Origin: Escherichia coli O127:H6 str. E2348/69
Lineage (GTDB): Bacteria > Pseudomonadota > Gammaproteobacteria > Enterobacterales > Enterobacteriaceae
DNA: 64,000 nucleotides
Assembly (NCBI RefSeq): GCF_000026545.1
Contig: NC_011601.1
Reading direction: 5' to 3' (one strand)
In this document: one piece after another, positions 9,250 to 17,881 of the stretch
How positions within the stretch are numbered: position 1 is the first letter of the stretch
Layout of the letters: each line of letters opens with the position of its first letter
Notes under the pieces: generated by a model
The model's database searches: none
Seen by the model: the letters and a program-made list of their open reading frames with translations, nothing else
Told to the model about the DNA's origin: nothing
Translations under genes and position numbers: made by a program

Positions 9250-12200
9250 TTACACCTTTTCCACATTCACAAGGAAGGACTTAAACTCCGGCGTCTGCGT
9301 GTTCGCATCACCGACGAATGGCGTCAACGTATTGGCAATAAAGCCTTTTTTCGCAACACCTTCATAGCCCCAGTGAATCGGAATACCGATGGTATCGATA
9401 TCTTTGCCGTTTGCTTTCAGCGTGCGAATACGTTTGGTCACTACCGCTTTGGCTTTGATATAGCCACGGTTGGAGGAGACTTTCACAGTATCGCCCTGGG
9501 CAATGCCAAGTTTATTCGCCAGCGACTCCCCGATTTCCACAAACTGCTCTGGTTGCAAAATCGCATTCAACAGCGCGTGTTTGGTCCAGTAGTGGAAGTG
9601 CTCGGTCAGACGATAGGTGGTTCCGACATACGGGAACTTATCGGCTTTACCCAATGCTTCGGCGTCGTCTTTAAAGATACGCGCAGCCGGGTTCGAGATA
9701 ACGTTTGGATGCAGCGGGTTAGTTCCCAGCGGCGTTTCAAACGGCTCGTAGTGTTCCGGGAACGGACCTTCCGCCATCTTATCGAGGGCAAACAGACGTC
9801 CCATGCCTTCCTGCTGCATGATAAACGGCCCTACGCCGCTGCCCGGAGGCGCTGCGCTGTAGTCCGGAATATCCCAGCCGGTCCACTTAGTGCCGTCCCA
9901 TTTCAGCAACTGACGCTTCGGATCCCATGGGTTACCCTGCGGATCTGCGGAGGCGCGGTTATACAGAATGCGGCGGTTTAGCGGCCATGCCCATGCCCAG
10001 CCCAGCGTGTTACCGAGGCCAGACGGATCGGCGTTATCACGACGCGCCATCTGGTTGCCTTCCGGCGTCCAGCTACCGGCGAAAATCCAGCAGCCACAGG
10101 AGGTTGTACCGTCATCGCGCAGTTGGGCGAACGAGCTAAGTTGTTGGCCTTTCTTGACGATAACCGCACCGGTTGCCGGGTCGGTAATATCGGCCAGCGC
10201 TTTGCCGTTGCTCTCCATTGCCACTTCTTCTGAAGATGGCTCATGCGGAATGGCGTAGTTCCAGGTCATGTTCAGCACCTGGTCCGGGTTCGCGCCACCC
10301 TGTTCGGCATACATCTTGCGCAAGCGCAGGAAGATACCGGAGAGGATCTCGCCATCAGTCAGCGCAATCCCCGGGGCGTCCGCACCTTTCCAGTGCCACT
10401 GTAACCAGCGACCTGAGTTAACGATAGAACCGTTCTCTTCCGCGAAGCAGGTCGATGGTAGACGGAACACTTCGGTCTGGATCTTCGACGAGTCAACTTC
10501 GTTCAGCTCACCGTGGTTCTGCCAGAAGTTAGAGGTTTCAGTGTTCAGCGGGTCGATAGTCACGAGGAATTTCAGCTTCGACAGACAGCCGATCACTTTG
10601 TTTTTGTTCGGGAATGAGGCAACAGGGTTAAAGCCCTGGCAGATATAGCCATTGACCTTGCCTTCTTTCATCATCTCGAAGTATTGCAGGACGTCGTAGC
10701 CTTTATCCCACTTCGGCAACCAGTCAAAGCCCCAGCTATTTTCCGCCGTCGCTTTATCACCAAAGAAGGCCTTCATCATAGAGACGAAGAATTTCGGGTA
10801 GTTGCCCCAGTAGTTTACCTGGCCTTCCAGCAGCGGTTTTGGCGTGTTGGCGGTAAGGTAGGTTTGCAGATCGGTCTGCTTCTCGCTTGGCAGCGTCATG
10901 TAACCTGGCAGGCTCTGCGACAGCAGCCCCAGGTCGGTCAGCCCCTGAATATTGGAGTGACCGCGCAGGGCGTTAACGCCGCCGCCAGCCATCCCCATAT
11001 TGCCGAGCAGCAACTGGATCATCGCCATCGTACGGATGTTCTGCGCACCGATGGAGTGTTGCGTCCAGCCGAGCGCGTAAAGGAACGAGGCAGTTTTATC
11101 GTGAGCACTGGTTTCGGCGATGTATTCGCAGACTTTCAGGAATGCGTCTTTTGGCGTACCACAGATGTTTTCAACCACATCTGGCGTGTAGCGGGAAACG
11201 TGCTGTTTCAGCAAGTTCCACACGCAACGTGGATGTTGCAGGGTAGTATCGCGTTTGGCGAAGCCGTTTTCGTCCAGTTCGTAAGTCCAGGTGGACTTAT
11301 CGTACTTGCGTTTTTCCGCGTCGTAGCCGGTGAACAGGCCATCTTCAAAGCCGTAATCCTCACGCACGATCAGGCTAGCGTTGGTATAGGCTTCGGTGTA
11401 TTCGCGGTTGAATTTTTCATTGTTCAGCAGGTACAGCAATACGCCTGACAGGAAAGCAATGTCAGTACCGGAACGGATAGGGGCATAGTAGTCAGCCACC
11501 GCCGCTGTACGTGTAAAGCGAGGATCGATCACAATCAGCTTCGCGCCGTTGTGAATTTTGGCTTCCATCGCCCAGCGGAACCCGACCGGGTGAGCTTCAG
11601 CGGCGTTACCGCCCATCACCACGACGAGGTTGGCATTCTTGATGTCGACCCAGTGGTTGGTCATCGCACCGCGACCAAATGTTGGAGCAAGACTTGCTAC
11701 CGTTGGTCCGTGTCAGACACGCGCCTGGTTGTCGACCGCGAGCATACCCAGCGCGCGGGAGAATTTTTGCGTTAAATAGCCGGTTTCGTTACTCGACGCG
11801 GAAGCACACAGCATCCCGGTGGAGAGCCAGCGGTTAACAGTCACGCCTTCGGCGTTTTGCGCAATGTAGTTCGCATCGCGGTCTTCTTTCATCAGTTTGG
11901 CGATGCGATCAAACGCCTCTTCCCAACTGATTTGCTGCCATTTATCAGAACCTGGCGCACGGTATTCCGGAAACTTCAGGCGGCTTTCGGAGTGGATGAA
12001 ATCCACCAGGCCAGCGCCTTTCGGACAAAGTGCTCCGCGGTTGACCGGGTGATCCGGGTCACCTTCGATATGGAAGATAGATGCTTTGGCGTTTTTTGCT
12101 CCGTCACCGAGGCTGTACATCAACAGCCCACAGCCTACGGAACAATAGGTGCAGGTATTACGGGTTTCGCGGGTGCGCAGCAGTTTATACTGCCGGGTTT

Positions 12201-12300
12201 CCGCGAGTGCTACGCTGGGTGCAAAACCCAGTGCCGCTGCCGTGGTGCCTGCCATACCGCCAGCGCAGATCTTAAAGAACTGCCTTCTGCTGACCTGCAT
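9250..12300 (-). CDS. fdoG: formate dehydrogenase-O major subunit, selenoprotein (in-frame UGA = Sec at 11713..11715)
   Basis: track ORFs 11713..12300 (195 aa, Tat signal SRRQFFK) and 9250..11664 (804 aa) are in one frame separated only by TGA; joined length is 1016 aa. Confidence 0.92.
11668..11712 (-). other. SECIS-like hairpin immediately 3' of the fdoG UGA
   Basis: mRNA reads UGA-CACGGACCAACGGUAGCAAGUCUUGCUCC..., a stem with an AGUC-type apical loop resembling the fdhF SECIS. Confidence 0.6.
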
Positions 12301-12493: not shown

Positions 12494-13330
12494 GTGAAAA
12501 AAACACAGCAAAAAGAAATCGAGAATGTGACAAATATCACAGGTGTTCGTCAAATTGAGTTATGGCGGCGTGATGATTTACAACACCCACGGTTAGATGA
12601 GGTGGCGGAAGAAGTTCCCGTTGCGCTGGTCTACAACGGCATTTCGCATGTGGTGATGATGGCGTCGCCCAAAGACCTTGAGTACTTTGCGCTCGGTTTT
12701 TCGCTTTCCGAAGGAATTATCGAAAGCCCGCGCGATATCTTCGGCATGGATGTCGTTCCTTCCTGTAATGGCCTGGAAGTACAAATTGAGCTTTCCAGCC
12801 GCCGCTTTATGGGGTTGAAGGAACGCCGCCGGGCGCTGGCGGGACGTACGGGCTGTGGCGTATGCGGTGTAGAACAGCTTAACGATATCGGTAAACCGGT
12901 GCAGCCGCTGCCGTTCACCCAGACGTTTGATCTCAACAAACTGGATGATGCATTACGTCATCTCAATGATTTCCAGCCAGTGGGGCAACTGACTGGTTGT
13001 ACTCACGCCGCTGCATGGATGTTGCCATCTGGCGAACTGGTCGGCGGGCATGAAGACGTGGGTCGCCATGTGGCGCTGGACAAACTGTTAGGCCGCCGGT
13101 CACAAGAAGGGGAAAGCTGGCAGCAAGGTGCGGTGCTGGTTTCCAGCCGTGCCAGTTATGAAATGGTGCAAAAGTCGGCGATGTGCGGCGTAGAGATTTT
13201 GTTTGCGGTGTCTGCCGCGACCACACTTGCTGTAGAAGTGGCTGAGCGCTGTAATCTGACGCTGGTGGGCTTTTGTAAACCGGGTCGGGCAACGGTTTAT
13301 ACCCATCCGCAGCGTTTGGTTCATAATTAA
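12494..13330 (+). CDS. fdhD: formate dehydrogenase sulfurtransferase FdhD
   Basis: 278-aa ORF from a GTG start, divergent from fdoG. Confidence 0.9.
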
Positions 13331-13337
13331 AGAAATA

Positions 13338-13373
13338 CCGCAATTCTGATTCTGGATTGCGGTTTTATTTTTC
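13338..13373 (+). terminator. rho-independent terminator after fdhD
   Basis: CCGCAAT...ATTGCGG stem followed by TTTTATTTTTC. Confidence 0.65.
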
Positions 13374-13640
13374 TATTAAATAATCCTCAATATATTATTC
13401 AGCATTTAAATAATAATTTCACCACAATAAATTATCTCGTTAATTCCGGTTTATATCGATATACTCCGGTCGCATTAATCCTTTAAGAATTAATCATTAT
13501 TTATATAAGACATTTTGTTTTAATCATCGCGTCAATAAATAAATGTTTCTGATGAGTGAATGCAAATAACAAACCTTGCACCGGTTGTAAAAACAGCAAT
13601 GTATTTTCAATAGTGGGTGATGGATTATGAGTATTGAAAA
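13374..13640 (+). promoter_or_regulatory. strongly AT-rich leader/promoter region upstream of the Hsp90-paralog cassette
   Basis: GC roughly 25-30 percent by eye; TTGCAC at 13576-13581 as a possible -35; no precise promoter assigned. Confidence 0.3.
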
Positions 13641-15476
13641 ATGAGTACATTACAGTTACCTGGCAGTTCATATTCTACTGAAGTTAATTTAAACGGCTTA
13701 ATTGAGGTGCTCAGTAAGCACCTTTACTCTACCCCCGTGGTCGCCGTGCGCGAGCTGGTGCAGAACGGACACGATGCGATCGTGCGCCGCAGGATTGAGC
13801 AGCCCGATGCGCCAAAGGATAACCAAATTCGTGTGGTGGCAGACGTGGCGAAGTCCACCATCACCATTACCGATACCGGTGCGGGTTTGACAGAAAGCGA
13901 AATTCACGGCTTCCTGGCAACAGTGGGCGTGGGTTATACCCGAATGTTGCGCCAGCAGGATGACAACACCGGTTTAATTGGTATGTTCGGCCTTGGTTTC
14001 TTGTCAGCATTTGTACTTGCAAAAGAGGTCACGGTGTTGACCACATCCTGGCAAACGCCGGATCAGAGCTGGAAATACCACTCTACCGACGGGCAAAAAT
14101 ATACCGTTACGCCGCATCAGTCCTCGGAAACGGGAACGCAGGTGATTCTGACGCTCAAAGAAGAGTACAGCCATCTGGCGAGTAACAATTTGCTGAACCG
14201 CGTTCTTTCCCGCTACTGTGTATTGCTGCACGAACCGGTCTATGTCGGCGATGCCAGCGAGCCGGTAAATAAACTTCAACCACCGTGGCGTGAAGTTGCC
14301 CCCGAAGGCGTAACCATACACCGCGCGCTGGTACAGCGTAAAAATCTCGCCTTTGCCGCCCAGTTTGAATCCTCCTTCGAACCGATTTGCACCATTCCGG
14401 TGGTGCCAGCGGGAATGAGCGACGCGGTTGGGATTTTATGGATTCAGGATGGCGCGACCTACGGCACCAGCGATAACCGCAACCTGTCGTTGTTTTTGCG
14501 CGGCATGTTACTGGATGATGAAGCGCGTGAGTTGTTACCGCCCTGGGCCGGATTTATTGGCGGCGTGATTGAGTCATCGAAACTGACGCCGACGGCGAGC
14601 AGGGAAGATCTCCAGCGGGATGCAACCTGGGTTGCGGTACAGGAGGCGTTAAAAGAGGCGCTGATTTCTGGTTTGTCCGATCTCGCACAAAATCAGCCAG
14701 AAATCTGGCGGCGGGTATTAATGCGCCACAACGAAGCGTTGCTGGGTGCGGCCTTGTGTGATGACCGTCTGTTTGATTTGCTCAAAGATCGCTTGCAGGT
14801 GCCAACGTCAAAAGGGGCGCTGCTGGCGAAGGATTTACGCGTTAATAACAGCATTCATATTCTGTTAAGCCGCGACGGCGGTTTTGAAGAGATGTTGTTC
14901 CATATTCTGCAACGGCCTGTAGCCCGTGGCGATCGCTATGCGGTGGTGCCATTTTTACGCCGTTGGGCGCTGTTATATCACTGCCGGATTGTCGAAGTCG
15001 GTACGCAAACGGGTAATGAGCAGTTGTTCAGCCTGGCAGAATTACCCAAAGAGCAGGTGGCTTATCTGGAAGAGCATCTCTGCGACGGCGAGCAATTAAT
15101 TATCTCACGCTTCGAACCCGCCGTTTTACCGTTAGTGGTTACACCAGACCGCGAAGCAGAATTAAAACAAATTCTCGAACAGGATGACGCAGATAAACGC
15201 ATCAGTACCGCAGCGTTAATGCTGGCGCGGCAATTTACCTCGCAAATCCAAAAATCTAAAACTTCAAGTCTGTATATCAACCTTAATAACCCCTGTGTCA
15301 TGCAACTGGTGACGGCCTTACAACACCATCAACAGCCAGCGGCAGCATTACGGTTATTAAAATCGCTGAAAGTGATTTTGTGCTCCAGCGGTAATAAAGA
15401 ACAGCAGTGGGATTTACACCAGGCACTGGAAGATTTTACTCAGGTTATTCCTGTCTTAATTAATCAAGGAAAATAA
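13641..15476 (+). CDS. divergent Hsp90/HtpG-family paralog (GHKL ATPase with Hsp90 middle domain)
   Basis: 611 aa; N-terminus aligns by eye to HtpG: YSTEV..LYS..VRELVQNGHDA (HtpG FQSEV..LYS..LRELISNASDA), ITDTGAGLTESE (ISDNGVGMTRDE), GLIGMFGLGFLSAF (QLIGQFGVGFYSAF); middle domain LFLRGMLLDDEARELLP...IESSKLTPTASREDLQ (LYVQRVFIMDDAEQFMP...IDSSDLPLNVSREILQ). Confidence 0.8.
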   Translation: MSTLQLPGSSYSTEVNLNGLIEVLSKHLYSTPVVAVRELVQNGHDAIVRRRIEQPDAPKDNQIRVVADVAKSTITITDTGAGLTESEIHGFLATVGVGYTRMLRQQDDNTGLIGMFGLGFLSAFVLAKEVTVLTTSWQTPDQSWKYHSTDGQKYTVTPHQSSETGTQVILTLKEEYSHLASNNLLNRVLSRYCVLLHEPVYVGDASEPVNKLQPPWREVAPEGVTIHRALVQRKNLAFAAQFESSFEPICTIPVVPAGMSDAVGILWIQDGATYGTSDNRNLSLFLRGMLLDDEARELLPPWAGFIGGVIESSKLTPTASREDLQRDATWVAVQEALKEALISGLSDLAQNQPEIWRRVLMRHNEALLGAALCDDRLFDLLKDRLQVPTSKGALLAKDLRVNNSIHILLSRDGGFEEMLFHILQRPVARGDRYAVVPFLRRWALLYHCRIVEVGTQTGNEQLFSLAELPKEQVAYLEEHLCDGEQLIISRFEPAVLPLVVTPDREAELKQILEQDDADKRISTAALMLARQFTSQIQKSKTSSLYINLNNPCVMQLVTALQHHQQPAAALRLLKSLKVILCSSGNKEQQWDLHQALEDFTQVIPVLINQGK

Positions 15477-15477
15477 A

Positions 15478-17784
15478 ATGGATACATGGGAGTGGTACAA
15501 CAAATATAGTCAAGAGTTGCGTGATGCCGGGCAAGAATATATTCCGCAGCTTATTGATGATTTTTCAGAAAGTGTTTTGCACCTACAAATAGAAAAATGT
15601 GATTCGCTATTGCCGGAAATGAAAGCACTGAATCAAGTCGCCAAAAATCCGTGGCTGGAAATATTTATTGGTCACTGGGAAATGCGTCATCGCCTGACTA
15701 ACTATGAAGAAGGTGAAAAGGTGCTGCCAGACGTGGTAGCGCTGTTTGAAAAAGCGCATCGGGAAGAGGCGAAAGATTGCCCGCAATCTATCTGCGTTAC
15801 CCAGGATTTATCAGCCTGCTACGAAAATATTGACGCACCAGGCTGGGCGAATGAACGCATGGCGGTGTGTGAAGAAACCATCGCGCGCATTGATCCGACC
15901 TGGAGCTGTTTTCAGTGTTTGTCCACTGAATATGCCAGCGCACTGATAGATTCCAAAAGAACAGAGGAGGCACTGGCTTATCTGGATCGGCAAATCGACG
16001 CAGTTAAAGCAGCCGGGAAAGATGATATTGATCCATTACTTTATACTCGCGCCGATATTCTGATTGAACTTCAGCGTTATGATGAAGCACGCAAATTGAT
16101 TGATGAGCTGACAGAAGCCAATGATTACTGGGGCCGCGACCGCATTAGTAATCACCTAAAAAAACTGTACATCATGGCGTTATGCGGGCAGGACGAAGAA
16201 GTCTGGGAGGAATTACCGCGTTGGTCCGATCTGACTCCGCATTCATGGGGGTCATGGCTGAAAATCATTACTGTGTTACTTCCCCGTCATCCACAAAGAA
16301 ACAACTGGCAACTGGCGCGCATCATCCAGAAAATGCTGGAGCAACGTTCACAGGCCGGGGCGCATCGAAAAGTGGTTAATCTGGCAAAACTACAAATCAC
16401 CCTGGCGCTGGAGCGTGAATCCGTCTGGGTTGCCAAAATAGCGATGAAACTGGCCCAGCGACACATGCCAAAATTACGCGCGTTACTGGGCGTCGATCGC
16501 GAGTTTCTCGAACTTAGCGAAAAAATCGCCACCAAAGAAGCAGAGTTGCTTGCTCGTCCGGTTGTAGAAGTACCTGAAAATAGCGACGAAGAAACGCAGC
16601 CAGATCCAGAAAAAGACGTCGAAATATTCCGCCGCGCTTATCTGAACACACCAGACGATGCAGAGTTACTGGGCAAACTGGTCAATGCGTTAAATGCCTG
16701 TAATGCGATTAATGAGTCAATTGAACTTCTGCAACGCTATGTTGAAAGCCACCTCCATGAAGATAATGGTCTTTGCTTCGATCTGTTGGATTTATTGCTC
16801 CACCGTGACGATCTGCAAACCATTGAGCACCTGGCGAAGCAGTATGAACAGGCGGGGCTGCTACATATGGCCTTGTGGTTCCGGGCGCGAGTGATCAACC
16901 AACAGGAAGACTGGAGTGAACTGGAGTCGATTGGACAACAGTTGCTGCAAAACGAAAAAGGGCGTGAGTGGGTTGGCGTTTATCGCATGTGCTCCTGGGC
17001 AGCACAAAAACAGGAAGCCTGGGATCGACAGCTGGATTATTTACAACAATTGCAGCAACTGATGATTAGCCGTGAAGAAGATATTCGTAATCTCCAGTGG
17101 GATATCATGGCGACCGCCAGCATCCTGCAACAATGGGATTTGGTTCGTGCTATTGCTGCTGAACTGGAAATCGAACTCACGGAAGGTGAAGGTTTTATTG
17201 ACGAAAAATGGGGGCTGCTAAACATTCGCTTCCGGGAAAATTATGAATACCGCTATTACTATGCTCAACGTATTGGGCCGGTAACCGCAAGGATCATTGA
17301 GCCAACTTACCGGACCGATTATCCGCAACATGTTGATGAGGTTGTGGTATTCGATGCAGAAATGTTGAATACCCGACCAGAGGATGAGGAAGAGCAGAAG
17401 AATTTCACTCCGCTTTATGGGTGCCTGAAAACCATTATCCCGACCGAATACGGCGAGTCCTGGTTCTGCGAAGGTGTCATGCCTGGTGAAGAAGAGTTTA
17501 ATACTTTCCGTGAGGCGCTCCGTGAACGAAACTGGTACTACTGGAGCAACAGTAATGACGACTATACGTTAACGGACAGTCATCAAGGAGAAGGCGCTGA
17601 GCCGCTGTCTGCATTCTATTTTGTTATCAGTGCGCCGCGTTCAGTTTCTAAAGGTGATATCGACAAGACCTTGCACGAATTGACCGCTGACTGGAAACAT
17701 CCGTTGTGCTGGTGGCGTCTTGCCAAAGAAGCCGGGGCGAATGAAGAGAAACATGCTGCTATTGCCGAGAGATATGGAATGTAA
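15478..17784 (+). CDS. 768-aa acidic, predicted all-helical repeat protein of unknown function, coupled to the Hsp90 paralog
   Basis: ATG one nucleotide after the upstream TAA; long uninterrupted ORF; TPR-like amphipathic segments; Trp/Tyr-rich C-terminal region; no catalytic motif I can name. Confidence 0.65.
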   Translation: MDTWEWYNKYSQELRDAGQEYIPQLIDDFSESVLHLQIEKCDSLLPEMKALNQVAKNPWLEIFIGHWEMRHRLTNYEEGEKVLPDVVALFEKAHREEAKDCPQSICVTQDLSACYENIDAPGWANERMAVCEETIARIDPTWSCFQCLSTEYASALIDSKRTEEALAYLDRQIDAVKAAGKDDIDPLLYTRADILIELQRYDEARKLIDELTEANDYWGRDRISNHLKKLYIMALCGQDEEVWEELPRWSDLTPHSWGSWLKIITVLLPRHPQRNNWQLARIIQKMLEQRSQAGAHRKVVNLAKLQITLALERESVWVAKIAMKLAQRHMPKLRALLGVDREFLELSEKIATKEAELLARPVVEVPENSDEETQPDPEKDVEIFRRAYLNTPDDAELLGKLVNALNACNAINESIELLQRYVESHLHEDNGLCFDLLDLLLHRDDLQTIEHLAKQYEQAGLLHMALWFRARVINQQEDWSELESIGQQLLQNEKGREWVGVYRMCSWAAQKQEAWDRQLDYLQQLQQLMISREEDIRNLQWDIMATASILQQWDLVRAIAAELEIELTEGEGFIDEKWGLLNIRFRENYEYRYYYAQRIGPVTARIIEPTYRTDYPQHVDEVVVFDAEMLNTRPEDEEEQKNFTPLYGCLKTIIPTEYGESWFCEGVMPGEEEFNTFREALRERNWYYWSNSNDDYTLTDSHQGEGAEPLSAFYFVISAPRSVSKGDIDKTLHELTADWKHPLCWWRLAKEAGANEEKHAAIAERYGM

Positions 17785-17881
17785 GCGGCACTAACGTTTG
17801 TCCGACTCTGGTGTAGCTGAACGGTGAAATCCCAGGTCGGACAACAAACCGTACTAACGGGGGGCCCAAAAATTGTGTCTC

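Follow-up and report, generated by a model that had tools for sequence, protein, structure and literature searches.

A divergent, probably active Hsp90 paralog of Escherichia coli E2348/69 and its conserved tetratricopeptide repeat partner gene

We analyzed a stretch of 64,000 nucleotides (nt) from the chromosome of Escherichia coli O127:H6 strain E2348/69 (contig NC_011601.1, with 100% identity to NZ_CP059840.2; this whole stretch is the window, and all positions refer to it) that carries a gene for a divergent Hsp90-family protein and, immediately downstream on the same strand, a gene for a tetratricopeptide repeat (TPR) protein that we call the partner. In this strain 1 nt lies between the stop codon of the Hsp90 gene and the start of the partner gene. 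An initial annotation of this DNA had considered the Hsp90 gene, leaving its neighbor unnoticed; the obligate Hsp90/TPR gene pair is the main result described here and goes beyond what that annotation observed. The two genes are as follows (aa, amino acids).

13641..15476, + strand: Hsp90-family paralog gene (611 aa, WP_000105780.1, annotated as 'ATP-binding protein').
15478..17784, + strand: partner gene (768 aa, WP_000382016.1, annotated as 'tetratricopeptide repeat protein').

When compared by BLASTP with E. coli K-12 HtpG (624 aa), the paralog aligns over residues 20–357 with 93 identities in 364 positions (26%, E value 1e-30), and the motifs that build an Hsp90 ATPase site all lie within the aligned region.

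13746..13778, + strand: N-box VRELVQNGHDA, with the catalytic base E38 (13752-13754), the Mg ligand N42, the clade-specific H44, and D45.
13866..13901, + strand: G1 box ITDTGAGLTESE, with D78 (adenine contact), G80 and G82.
13971..14012, + strand: G2 box GLIGMFGLGFLSAF, with G114, G117 and G119.
14586..14615, + strand: middle-domain catalytic loop TPTASREDLQ, with R321 at 14601-14603.

The N-box falls on LRELISNASDA of HtpG, so that E38 pairs with E34, N42 with N38, and D45 with D41; the G1 box ITDTGAGLTESE falls on ISDNGVGMTRDE, with D78 opposite D80; the G2 box GLIGMFGLGFLSAF falls on QLIGQFGVGFYSAF; and the catalytic loop falls on PLNVSREILQ, which places R321 opposite R336 (R380 being the yeast equivalent). 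A MAFFT profile alignment returned the same register. The Hsp90-family GHKL (Bergerat) signature is present, with E-x3-N-x2-D in the N-box, D-x-G-x-G in G1, and G-x2-G-x-G in G2, and the ATP lid that precedes the G2 box is about 5–7 residues shorter than that of HtpG. The initial annotation had aligned these motifs by eye, and both alignments bear it out on the codon of the catalytic Glu, on the conservation of the three boxes and the loop Arg, on the low overall identity, on the length of the protein relative to HtpG, and on the His that replaces Ser in the N-box. Its remark that the protein has no long charged linker is true as well, although it draws no distinction from HtpG, which also has none.

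Profile searches agree with this assignment: Pfam recognizes HATPase_c_3 (2.9e-9) and HSP90 (1.3e-7), and phmmer against the sequences of the PDB returns TRAP1 (1.9e-30) and HtpG (1e-27). A resemblance of this strength far exceeds what chance would give. Detectable sequence similarity to HtpG stops near residue 360. An AlphaFold2 model of the paralog, built on 46 homologues, has a predicted local distance difference test score (pLDDT) of 89.5, and its top Foldseek matches are full-length HtpG, TRAP1, Hsc82, and human Hsp90, with a template modeling score of ~0.7 over ~650 columns. Because the predicted structure superposes on full-length Hsp90s, the paralog is predicted to be Hsp90-like beyond residue 360 too, through the remainder of the middle domain and in the C-terminal domain, and structure prediction thus upholds the Hsp90 assignment with a full N-M-C architecture. 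No conserved EEVD-like or acidic C-terminal tail was found; no motif is common to the final 25 residues in an alignment of 46 members of the family.

An exhaustive search of 1.84 billion representatives yielded about 55 full-length relatives at 35–52% identity, followed by a second tier at ~30%. Conservation was read from 46 close family representatives (35–50% identity) and from 58 second-tier relatives (~30%). E38, N42, D45, D78, G80, G82, G114, G117, G119, and E322 are invariant in all 46 close representatives and R321 is kept in 45 of them, while the same catalytic set, R321 included, is kept in all 58 second-tier relatives. H44, where HtpG has Ser, is a signature of the clade and is found in 47 of the 58. 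Among five Escherichia alleles the ratio of non-synonymous to synonymous substitution rates (dN/dS) is 0.02–0.05 for the paralog, compared with 0.02–0.06 for the core gene fdhD, and 0.07–0.12 for the partner gene; the corresponding amino-acid identities are 97–99% for the paralog and 89–97% for the partner. The five alleles contain no stop codons and all frames are intact, and each of the 254 copies found in E. coli covers at least 80% of the query. Since the catalytic residues are kept, selection is purifying, the copies are intact, and the predicted fold is that of an Hsp90, the evidence supports a functional Hsp90-type ATPase that is under selection, and the earlier judgment that it is probably an active ATPase and not a decayed copy stands; from this residue conservation we infer ATP hydrolysis itself.

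To define the linkage of the two genes, we used the family alignment to search a single genome from each of 100,044 species. Of the 361 relatives obtained, the best 80 loci were kept, and the presence of the partner was scored by tblastn. In 76 of these 80 loci of other species, the partner lies directly downstream on the same strand at full length, and contig ends account for three of the four loci without an adjacent partner. The loci come from Escherichia, Superficieibacter, Phytobacter, Pantoea, Xanthomonas, Stenotrophomonas, Lysobacter, Pseudomonas, and Wohlfahrtiimonas, and the pair also occurs in betaproteobacteria, in Holophaga, and in one Chloroflexi genome. The intergenic distance ranges from -23 to +122 nt, with a median of 24. 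The genes that flank the pair are unrelated and differ between genera; those that can be named, in E. coli, P. aeruginosa, and five other genera, encode regulators, transporters, and enzymes of ordinary kinds. The pair is stable throughout Xanthomonas and Stenotrophomonas, across many species. The paralog and its partner are a self-contained two-gene module. A comparable arrangement is seen among the second-tier relatives, three of four sampled being followed by a translationally coupled helical protein of 351–416 aa, and one of these proteins begins MSVWDWY, resembling the MDTWEWY of the E. coli partner.

In P. aeruginosa the orthologous pair has the same order and lies between a LysR gene and braG, with 57.5% identity in the Hsp90 protein. 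From this gene order and the PAO1 annotation, we take the pair to be PA1068, annotated as 'probable heat shock protein, hsp90 family', and PA1069. A tblastn search of plasmid records gave nine with matches, including two from Xanthomonas vasicola; the P. aeruginosa record is typed as a plasmid (conjugative, 847 kb), yet chromosomal-type housekeeping genes surround the pair in it. The same method found no pair in genuine phage records, the other matches there being remote Hsp90-like genes. The only full-length match among the phage records, AFYI01000005.1, carries the pair at 91% and 76% amino-acid identity; it is a 156-kb chromosomal contig of Salmonella Infantis filed among the phages, and phage carriage through this record was rejected.

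The predicted structure of the partner (pLDDT 91.1) has three parts, listed here with the conserved cysteines.

15478..16557, + strand: N-terminal helical-repeat module of the partner, residues 1-360.
15778..15918, + strand: four invariant cysteines, C101, C106, C144, and C147, from the partner alignment.
16606..17163, + strand: TPR domain proper, residues 377-562.
17200..17781, + strand: C-terminal alpha/beta domain, residues 575-768, conserved.

H66 and H94 are likewise invariant, and the four cysteines may form a site for a metal or for redox chemistry. The alpha/beta domain had no match in Pfam, NCBIfam, PADLOC, PHROG, or the PDB sequences. Some Pseudomonas partners are short (~365 aa) and consist of the N-terminal cysteine-bearing module alone, so the TPR and C-terminal domains appear dispensable in those lineages. 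As this module is the sole part kept both in the short Pseudomonas partners and in the 351–416 aa partners of the second tier, it represents the partner in its minimal conserved form, and contact with the Hsp90 protein is likely made here. The short partners were seen in Pseudomonas sp. KNUC1026 (our locus L076), P. viridiflava (L079), P. ovata (L081), and P. cedrina (L082); at L079 and L081 an unrelated 709-aa gene follows, which at L079 matches methyl-accepting chemotaxis proteins. The proteome of Thorsellia has a 768-aa structural twin of the partner (AlphaFold database entry A0A1I0F9H8), the sole non-adjacent case seen.

The paralog is distinct from the housekeeping chaperone. It scores 198.4 bits with the NCBIfam HtpG model NF003555, short of the cut-off of 371, and it occurs in 254 of 5426 complete E. 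coli genomes (4.7%), whereas canonical htpG is present in 5424 of the 5426; its locus is fdhD-frvR, as against recR-htpG for the housekeeping gene. That the gene is simply an allele of htpG, the reading against which the initial annotation had set its own, is ruled out by the model score, the separate locus, and the near-universal presence of the canonical gene. HtpG and the paralog share the three-domain predicted fold, the catalytic Glu, the Mg-binding Asn, the adenine-contacting Asp, the glycine boxes, the middle-domain Arg, a similar length, and the absence of a charged linker. They differ in that their identity is low and limited to the first ~360 residues, in the N-box (N-A-S-D in HtpG, N-G-H-D in the paralog), in the shorter lid of the paralog, and in that the paralog sits at another locus, is accessory in E. 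coli, and is paired with a TPR gene. Judged by its sequence, the paralog appears to belong to a distinct bacterial Hsp90 lineage, the PA1068 type, with the signature N-x-H-D where HtpG has N-A-S-D.

Among curated models the top score is with NCBIfam NF010683 (PRK14083, 'HSP90 family protein'), which matches residues 13–571 at 287.7 bits and likewise does not reach its cut-off (455). Stechmann and Cavalier-Smith (2004) are reportedly associated with the hsp90C lineage. In Chen et al. (2006), Group C, which has shorter variable regions, takes in the additional Hsp90 copies found in gammaproteobacteria and actinobacteria (PMC1525184). Given this published position and the best NCBIfam model, the paralog probably belongs to the HtpG 'Group C' (hsp90C) lineage. 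The divergent bacterial groups B and C have been described by phylogeny, without a function or a partner gene (PMC1525184, PMC3708813). In the literature searched we found no functional study of PA1068/PA1069-type proteins and no mention of 'Hsp90xo', a name that stems from one database record.

Several further features border the two genes in E2348/69.

13337..13363, + strand: terminator-like hairpin with a T-run, 3' of fdhD (terminator scan and sequence).
13364..13640, + strand: AT-rich 5' intergenic spacer of 277 base pairs (bp), presumed to serve both genes as promoter/regulatory region.
13627..13644, + strand: mini open reading frame (mini-ORF) of five codons, MSIEK-stop, read from the sequence and the alignment of Escherichia alleles.
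17797..17846, no strand assigned: imperfect inverted repeat (TTGTCCGAC..CTGG / CCAGGTCGGACAA) between the convergent partner gene and frvR.

The hairpin sets fdhD apart from the Hsp90/TPR unit. Upstream of the pair, a scan for sigma-32 (heat-shock) promoters found none, the best match being 9/14, and a sigma-70 scan of the upstream region gave a result no better than shuffled sequence. The stop codon of the mini-ORF (TGA) and the start codon of the Hsp90 gene (ATG) overlap as ATGA, and the mini-ORF has a GGTGA Shine-Dalgarno-like site 6 nt upstream that is better than that of the annotated Hsp90 start; in Superficieibacter the ATG of the mini-ORF is in frame with the Hsp90 gene. The mini-ORF may be a leader peptide or may couple translation to the Hsp90 gene. 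Past the partner gene lies frvR, convergent on the opposite strand, and the inverted repeat between them may be a terminator, though it has no T-run and is not among the calls of the terminator scan.

The ~310-bp upstream region (13331-13645) is nearly identical among Escherichia alleles (compared with our loci L085, L086, L087, L004, and L005), unlike their coding sequences, which diverge at synonymous distances (dS) of 0.1–0.5; this suggests a constrained regulatory region or a recombination boundary. Between E2348/69 and Ecol_448 (L085; window interval 12494-17784), the FdhD and FdnG proteins are identical and the dS of fdhD is 0.015, rising to 0.15 in the Hsp90 gene and 0.43 in the TPR gene. 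A rise this steep toward the 3' side points to recombination that brought in a foreign allele. E2348/69 has no yiiG, which encodes a DUF3829 lipoprotein, and its partner gene abuts frvR across a 97-bp spacer (17785-17881). In K-12 the same interval holds yiiG only (L084, 3003-4058), and in the three other E. coli carriers that were read (Ecol_448, 702/18, and wlxctx60), yiiG is present downstream of the pair. Further upstream, on the − strand, the formate dehydrogenase alpha subunit (9250-12300) appears as two open reading frames of 195 aa and 804 aa with an in-frame stop between them, which the record annotates as a single coding sequence of 3051 nt (fdnG/fdoG). This is consistent with the UGA-selenocysteine codon for which the alpha subunit of this enzyme is known.

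The second-tier relatives add a domain not seen in the E. coli protein. Fifteen of the 58 are 800–908 aa long, and all 12 tails that were read carry an extension after a coiled coil, with the motif CFVAMPF...RAD...ADIT..NPNVM.E.G. The PADLOC model 'Effector TIR' matches this extension in two relatives (1.9e-10 in P0245, and 6e-4), and the neighbors of the TIR-fused relatives include a ThsB-like TIR gene (2.4e-63), LD_cluster3, SLATT, and a second Hsp90 paralog. Part of the Hsp90 clade is thus embedded in conflict-type systems. A TIR-like or deoxyribosyltransferase-like C-terminal domain after the coiled coil was noted in relatives of ~30% identity and 840–908 aa, namely P0223, P0224, P0229, P0237, P0245, P0259, P0260, P0262, P0263, P0265, and P0268; the loci of TIR-tailed relatives include L093 and L094, and the catalytic Glu, Asn, Asp, and Arg are retained in each of these proteins.

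We favor, with moderate confidence, a model in which the paralog is an active Hsp90-type ATPase that works with a dedicated partner, the latter being either a co-chaperone/adaptor or an obligate client. The paralog would dimerize through its C-terminal domain and bind ATP in the Bergerat pocket, where N42 would hold Mg, D78 would contact the adenine, and the glycine boxes would complete the site. The lid and the N-domains would then close on ATP, and hydrolysis would follow, E38 serving as the general base while the middle domain contributes R321. The partner would be coupled to this cycle, presumably through physical contact, and would bring or select a client as a dedicated co-chaperone or adaptor, or would itself be the obligate client that is matured. 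The initial annotation had guessed at a changed client or partner surface, and the conserved downstream TPR gene fits that guess. The arrangement recalls the eukaryotic Hsp90/TPR co-chaperones (Hop/Sti1, CHIP, PP5, and FKBP51/52) in that the partner also has a TPR domain. However, the paralog lacks the conserved C-terminal (M)EEVD/acidic tail of the eukaryotic pairs, the smallest conserved unit of the partner is the cysteine-bearing helical module and not the TPR, and any homology seen is confined to the generic TPR fold. Docking through the eukaryotic EEVD peptide is excluded, since the C-terminal tail is not conserved in the family.

Several observations weigh against this model. The eukaryotic mode of TPR docking does not apply, and the partner's TPR domain resembles the TPRs of sensors (MalT domain III, AimR, Rap, and NprR) as much as those of chaperones. 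Second-tier relatives are fused to TIR-like domains in defense-type neighborhoods. In Thorsellia anophelis (L083) the Hsp90 paralog is followed by aspS, and the partner is not adjacent. Reports on P. aeruginosa point both ways. In favor of the model, the PA1069 protein has been detected in proteomes, and its gene was noted as one that 'appears operonic' with the Hsp90 gene and as responsive to Ca2+ and biofilm growth (PMC4053335). Against it, in a heat-shock transcriptome the PA1069 transcript fell ~4-fold at 46 °C (PMC4957987). Together with the lack of a recognizable sigma-32 promoter, this fall argues against a classical heat-shock chaperone.

Among the alternatives, the decay of a catalytically dead copy, a pseudo-enzyme left from horizontal transfer, would account for the low identity to HtpG, for the absence of the pair from ~95% of E. 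coli genomes, and for an NCBI name that says merely 'ATP-binding protein'. It is contradicted by the catalytic residues kept across 104 diverse relatives (R321 in all but one), by the low dN/dS and intact frames of every allele read, by the near-full-length state of all 254 E. coli copies, and by a high-confidence predicted fold, so that we consider decay extremely improbable. A redundant general chaperone, acting alone or with DnaK as HtpG does and functionally unrelated to its TPR neighbor, would agree with the full Hsp90 architecture and the retained ATPase residues, and in E. coli HtpG itself requires no co-chaperone in its system with DnaK. Adjacency in 76 of 80 loci with so narrow a range of gaps, amid flanks that are specific to each genus, would be very unlikely without functional coupling, and second-tier relatives likewise keep a coupled helical partner; there is accordingly little probability in this explanation.

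The pair may instead be an immune or conflict module, in which the Hsp90-like ATPase would be a nucleotide-driven switch in the role of a STAND NTPase, the partner's TPR would sense an invader ligand or protein, and the partner's C-terminal domain, or a host target, would be the effector. This alternative draws on the TIR-like extensions of relatives that have the same catalytic set and lie beside ThsB-like TIR, LD_cluster3, and SLATT genes, on the ligand-sensing TPRs that are the partner's best structural matches, on the patchy occurrence of the pair in E. coli (254/5426) and its movement between phyla, and on the faster divergence of the partner relative to the ATPase among Escherichia alleles. 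It does not sit well with the PADLOC-DB 2.0.0 results, in which the paralog has only weak N-terminal GHKL similarity to TmtA (5.4e-6) and the partner has no match, nor with the lack of any recognizable effector domain in the partner by Pfam and PDB sequences. The flanks in E. coli, P. aeruginosa, and the five other genera are metabolic or regulatory and are not defense islands; carriage by many Xanthomonas and Stenotrophomonas species and in a housekeeping region of P. aeruginosa is unusual for defense genes; and the pair is missing from genuine phage records and nearly so from plasmids. In PHROGs the Hsp90 gene matches two families of unknown function and the partner none. Selection is strongly purifying, and diversifying selection is not seen at the level of whole genes. 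The likeness to STAND/AVAST- and Thoeris-type systems lies in an NTPase with a TPR sensor-like domain and possibly an effector, and in the TIR-fused relatives near ThsB-like genes, whereas STAND/AVAST-type systems use a P-loop STAND NTPase in place of the GHKL/Hsp90 fold found here with no recognized effector and no defense-island context. On balance we regard an immune role for the pair as unlikely, if worth serious attention. The broader proposal, that the N-x-H-D Hsp90 clade is an unrecognized class of ATP-driven immune switches and the pair a new anti-phage or conflict system, is somewhat more doubtful still; the output would then be the fused TIR-like domain in the second-tier relatives or the C-terminal domain of the PA1069 type.

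Bacterial HtpG has few known clients and its mutants have mild phenotypes, and it is not known to rely on dedicated co-chaperones. An active Hsp90-type ATPase coupled to the TPR protein described here may be the first case in bacteria of an Hsp90 that has a partner of its own. If the immune interpretation were true, a GHKL/Hsp90-based switch would join the known bacterial immune NTPases, in a parallel to NLR immunity in plants and animals, which depends on Hsp90. The carriers include important pathogens, among them enteropathogenic E. coli E2348/69, other E. coli lineages, P. aeruginosa, Stenotrophomonas, and Xanthomonas. What emerges is a widespread second Hsp90 lineage with the full ATPase machinery, genetically tied to one conserved TPR/cysteine-cluster protein, and this two-protein system could reveal how a specific partner or client is tied into the Hsp90 cycle by means other than the EEVD/TPR mechanism of eukaryotes.

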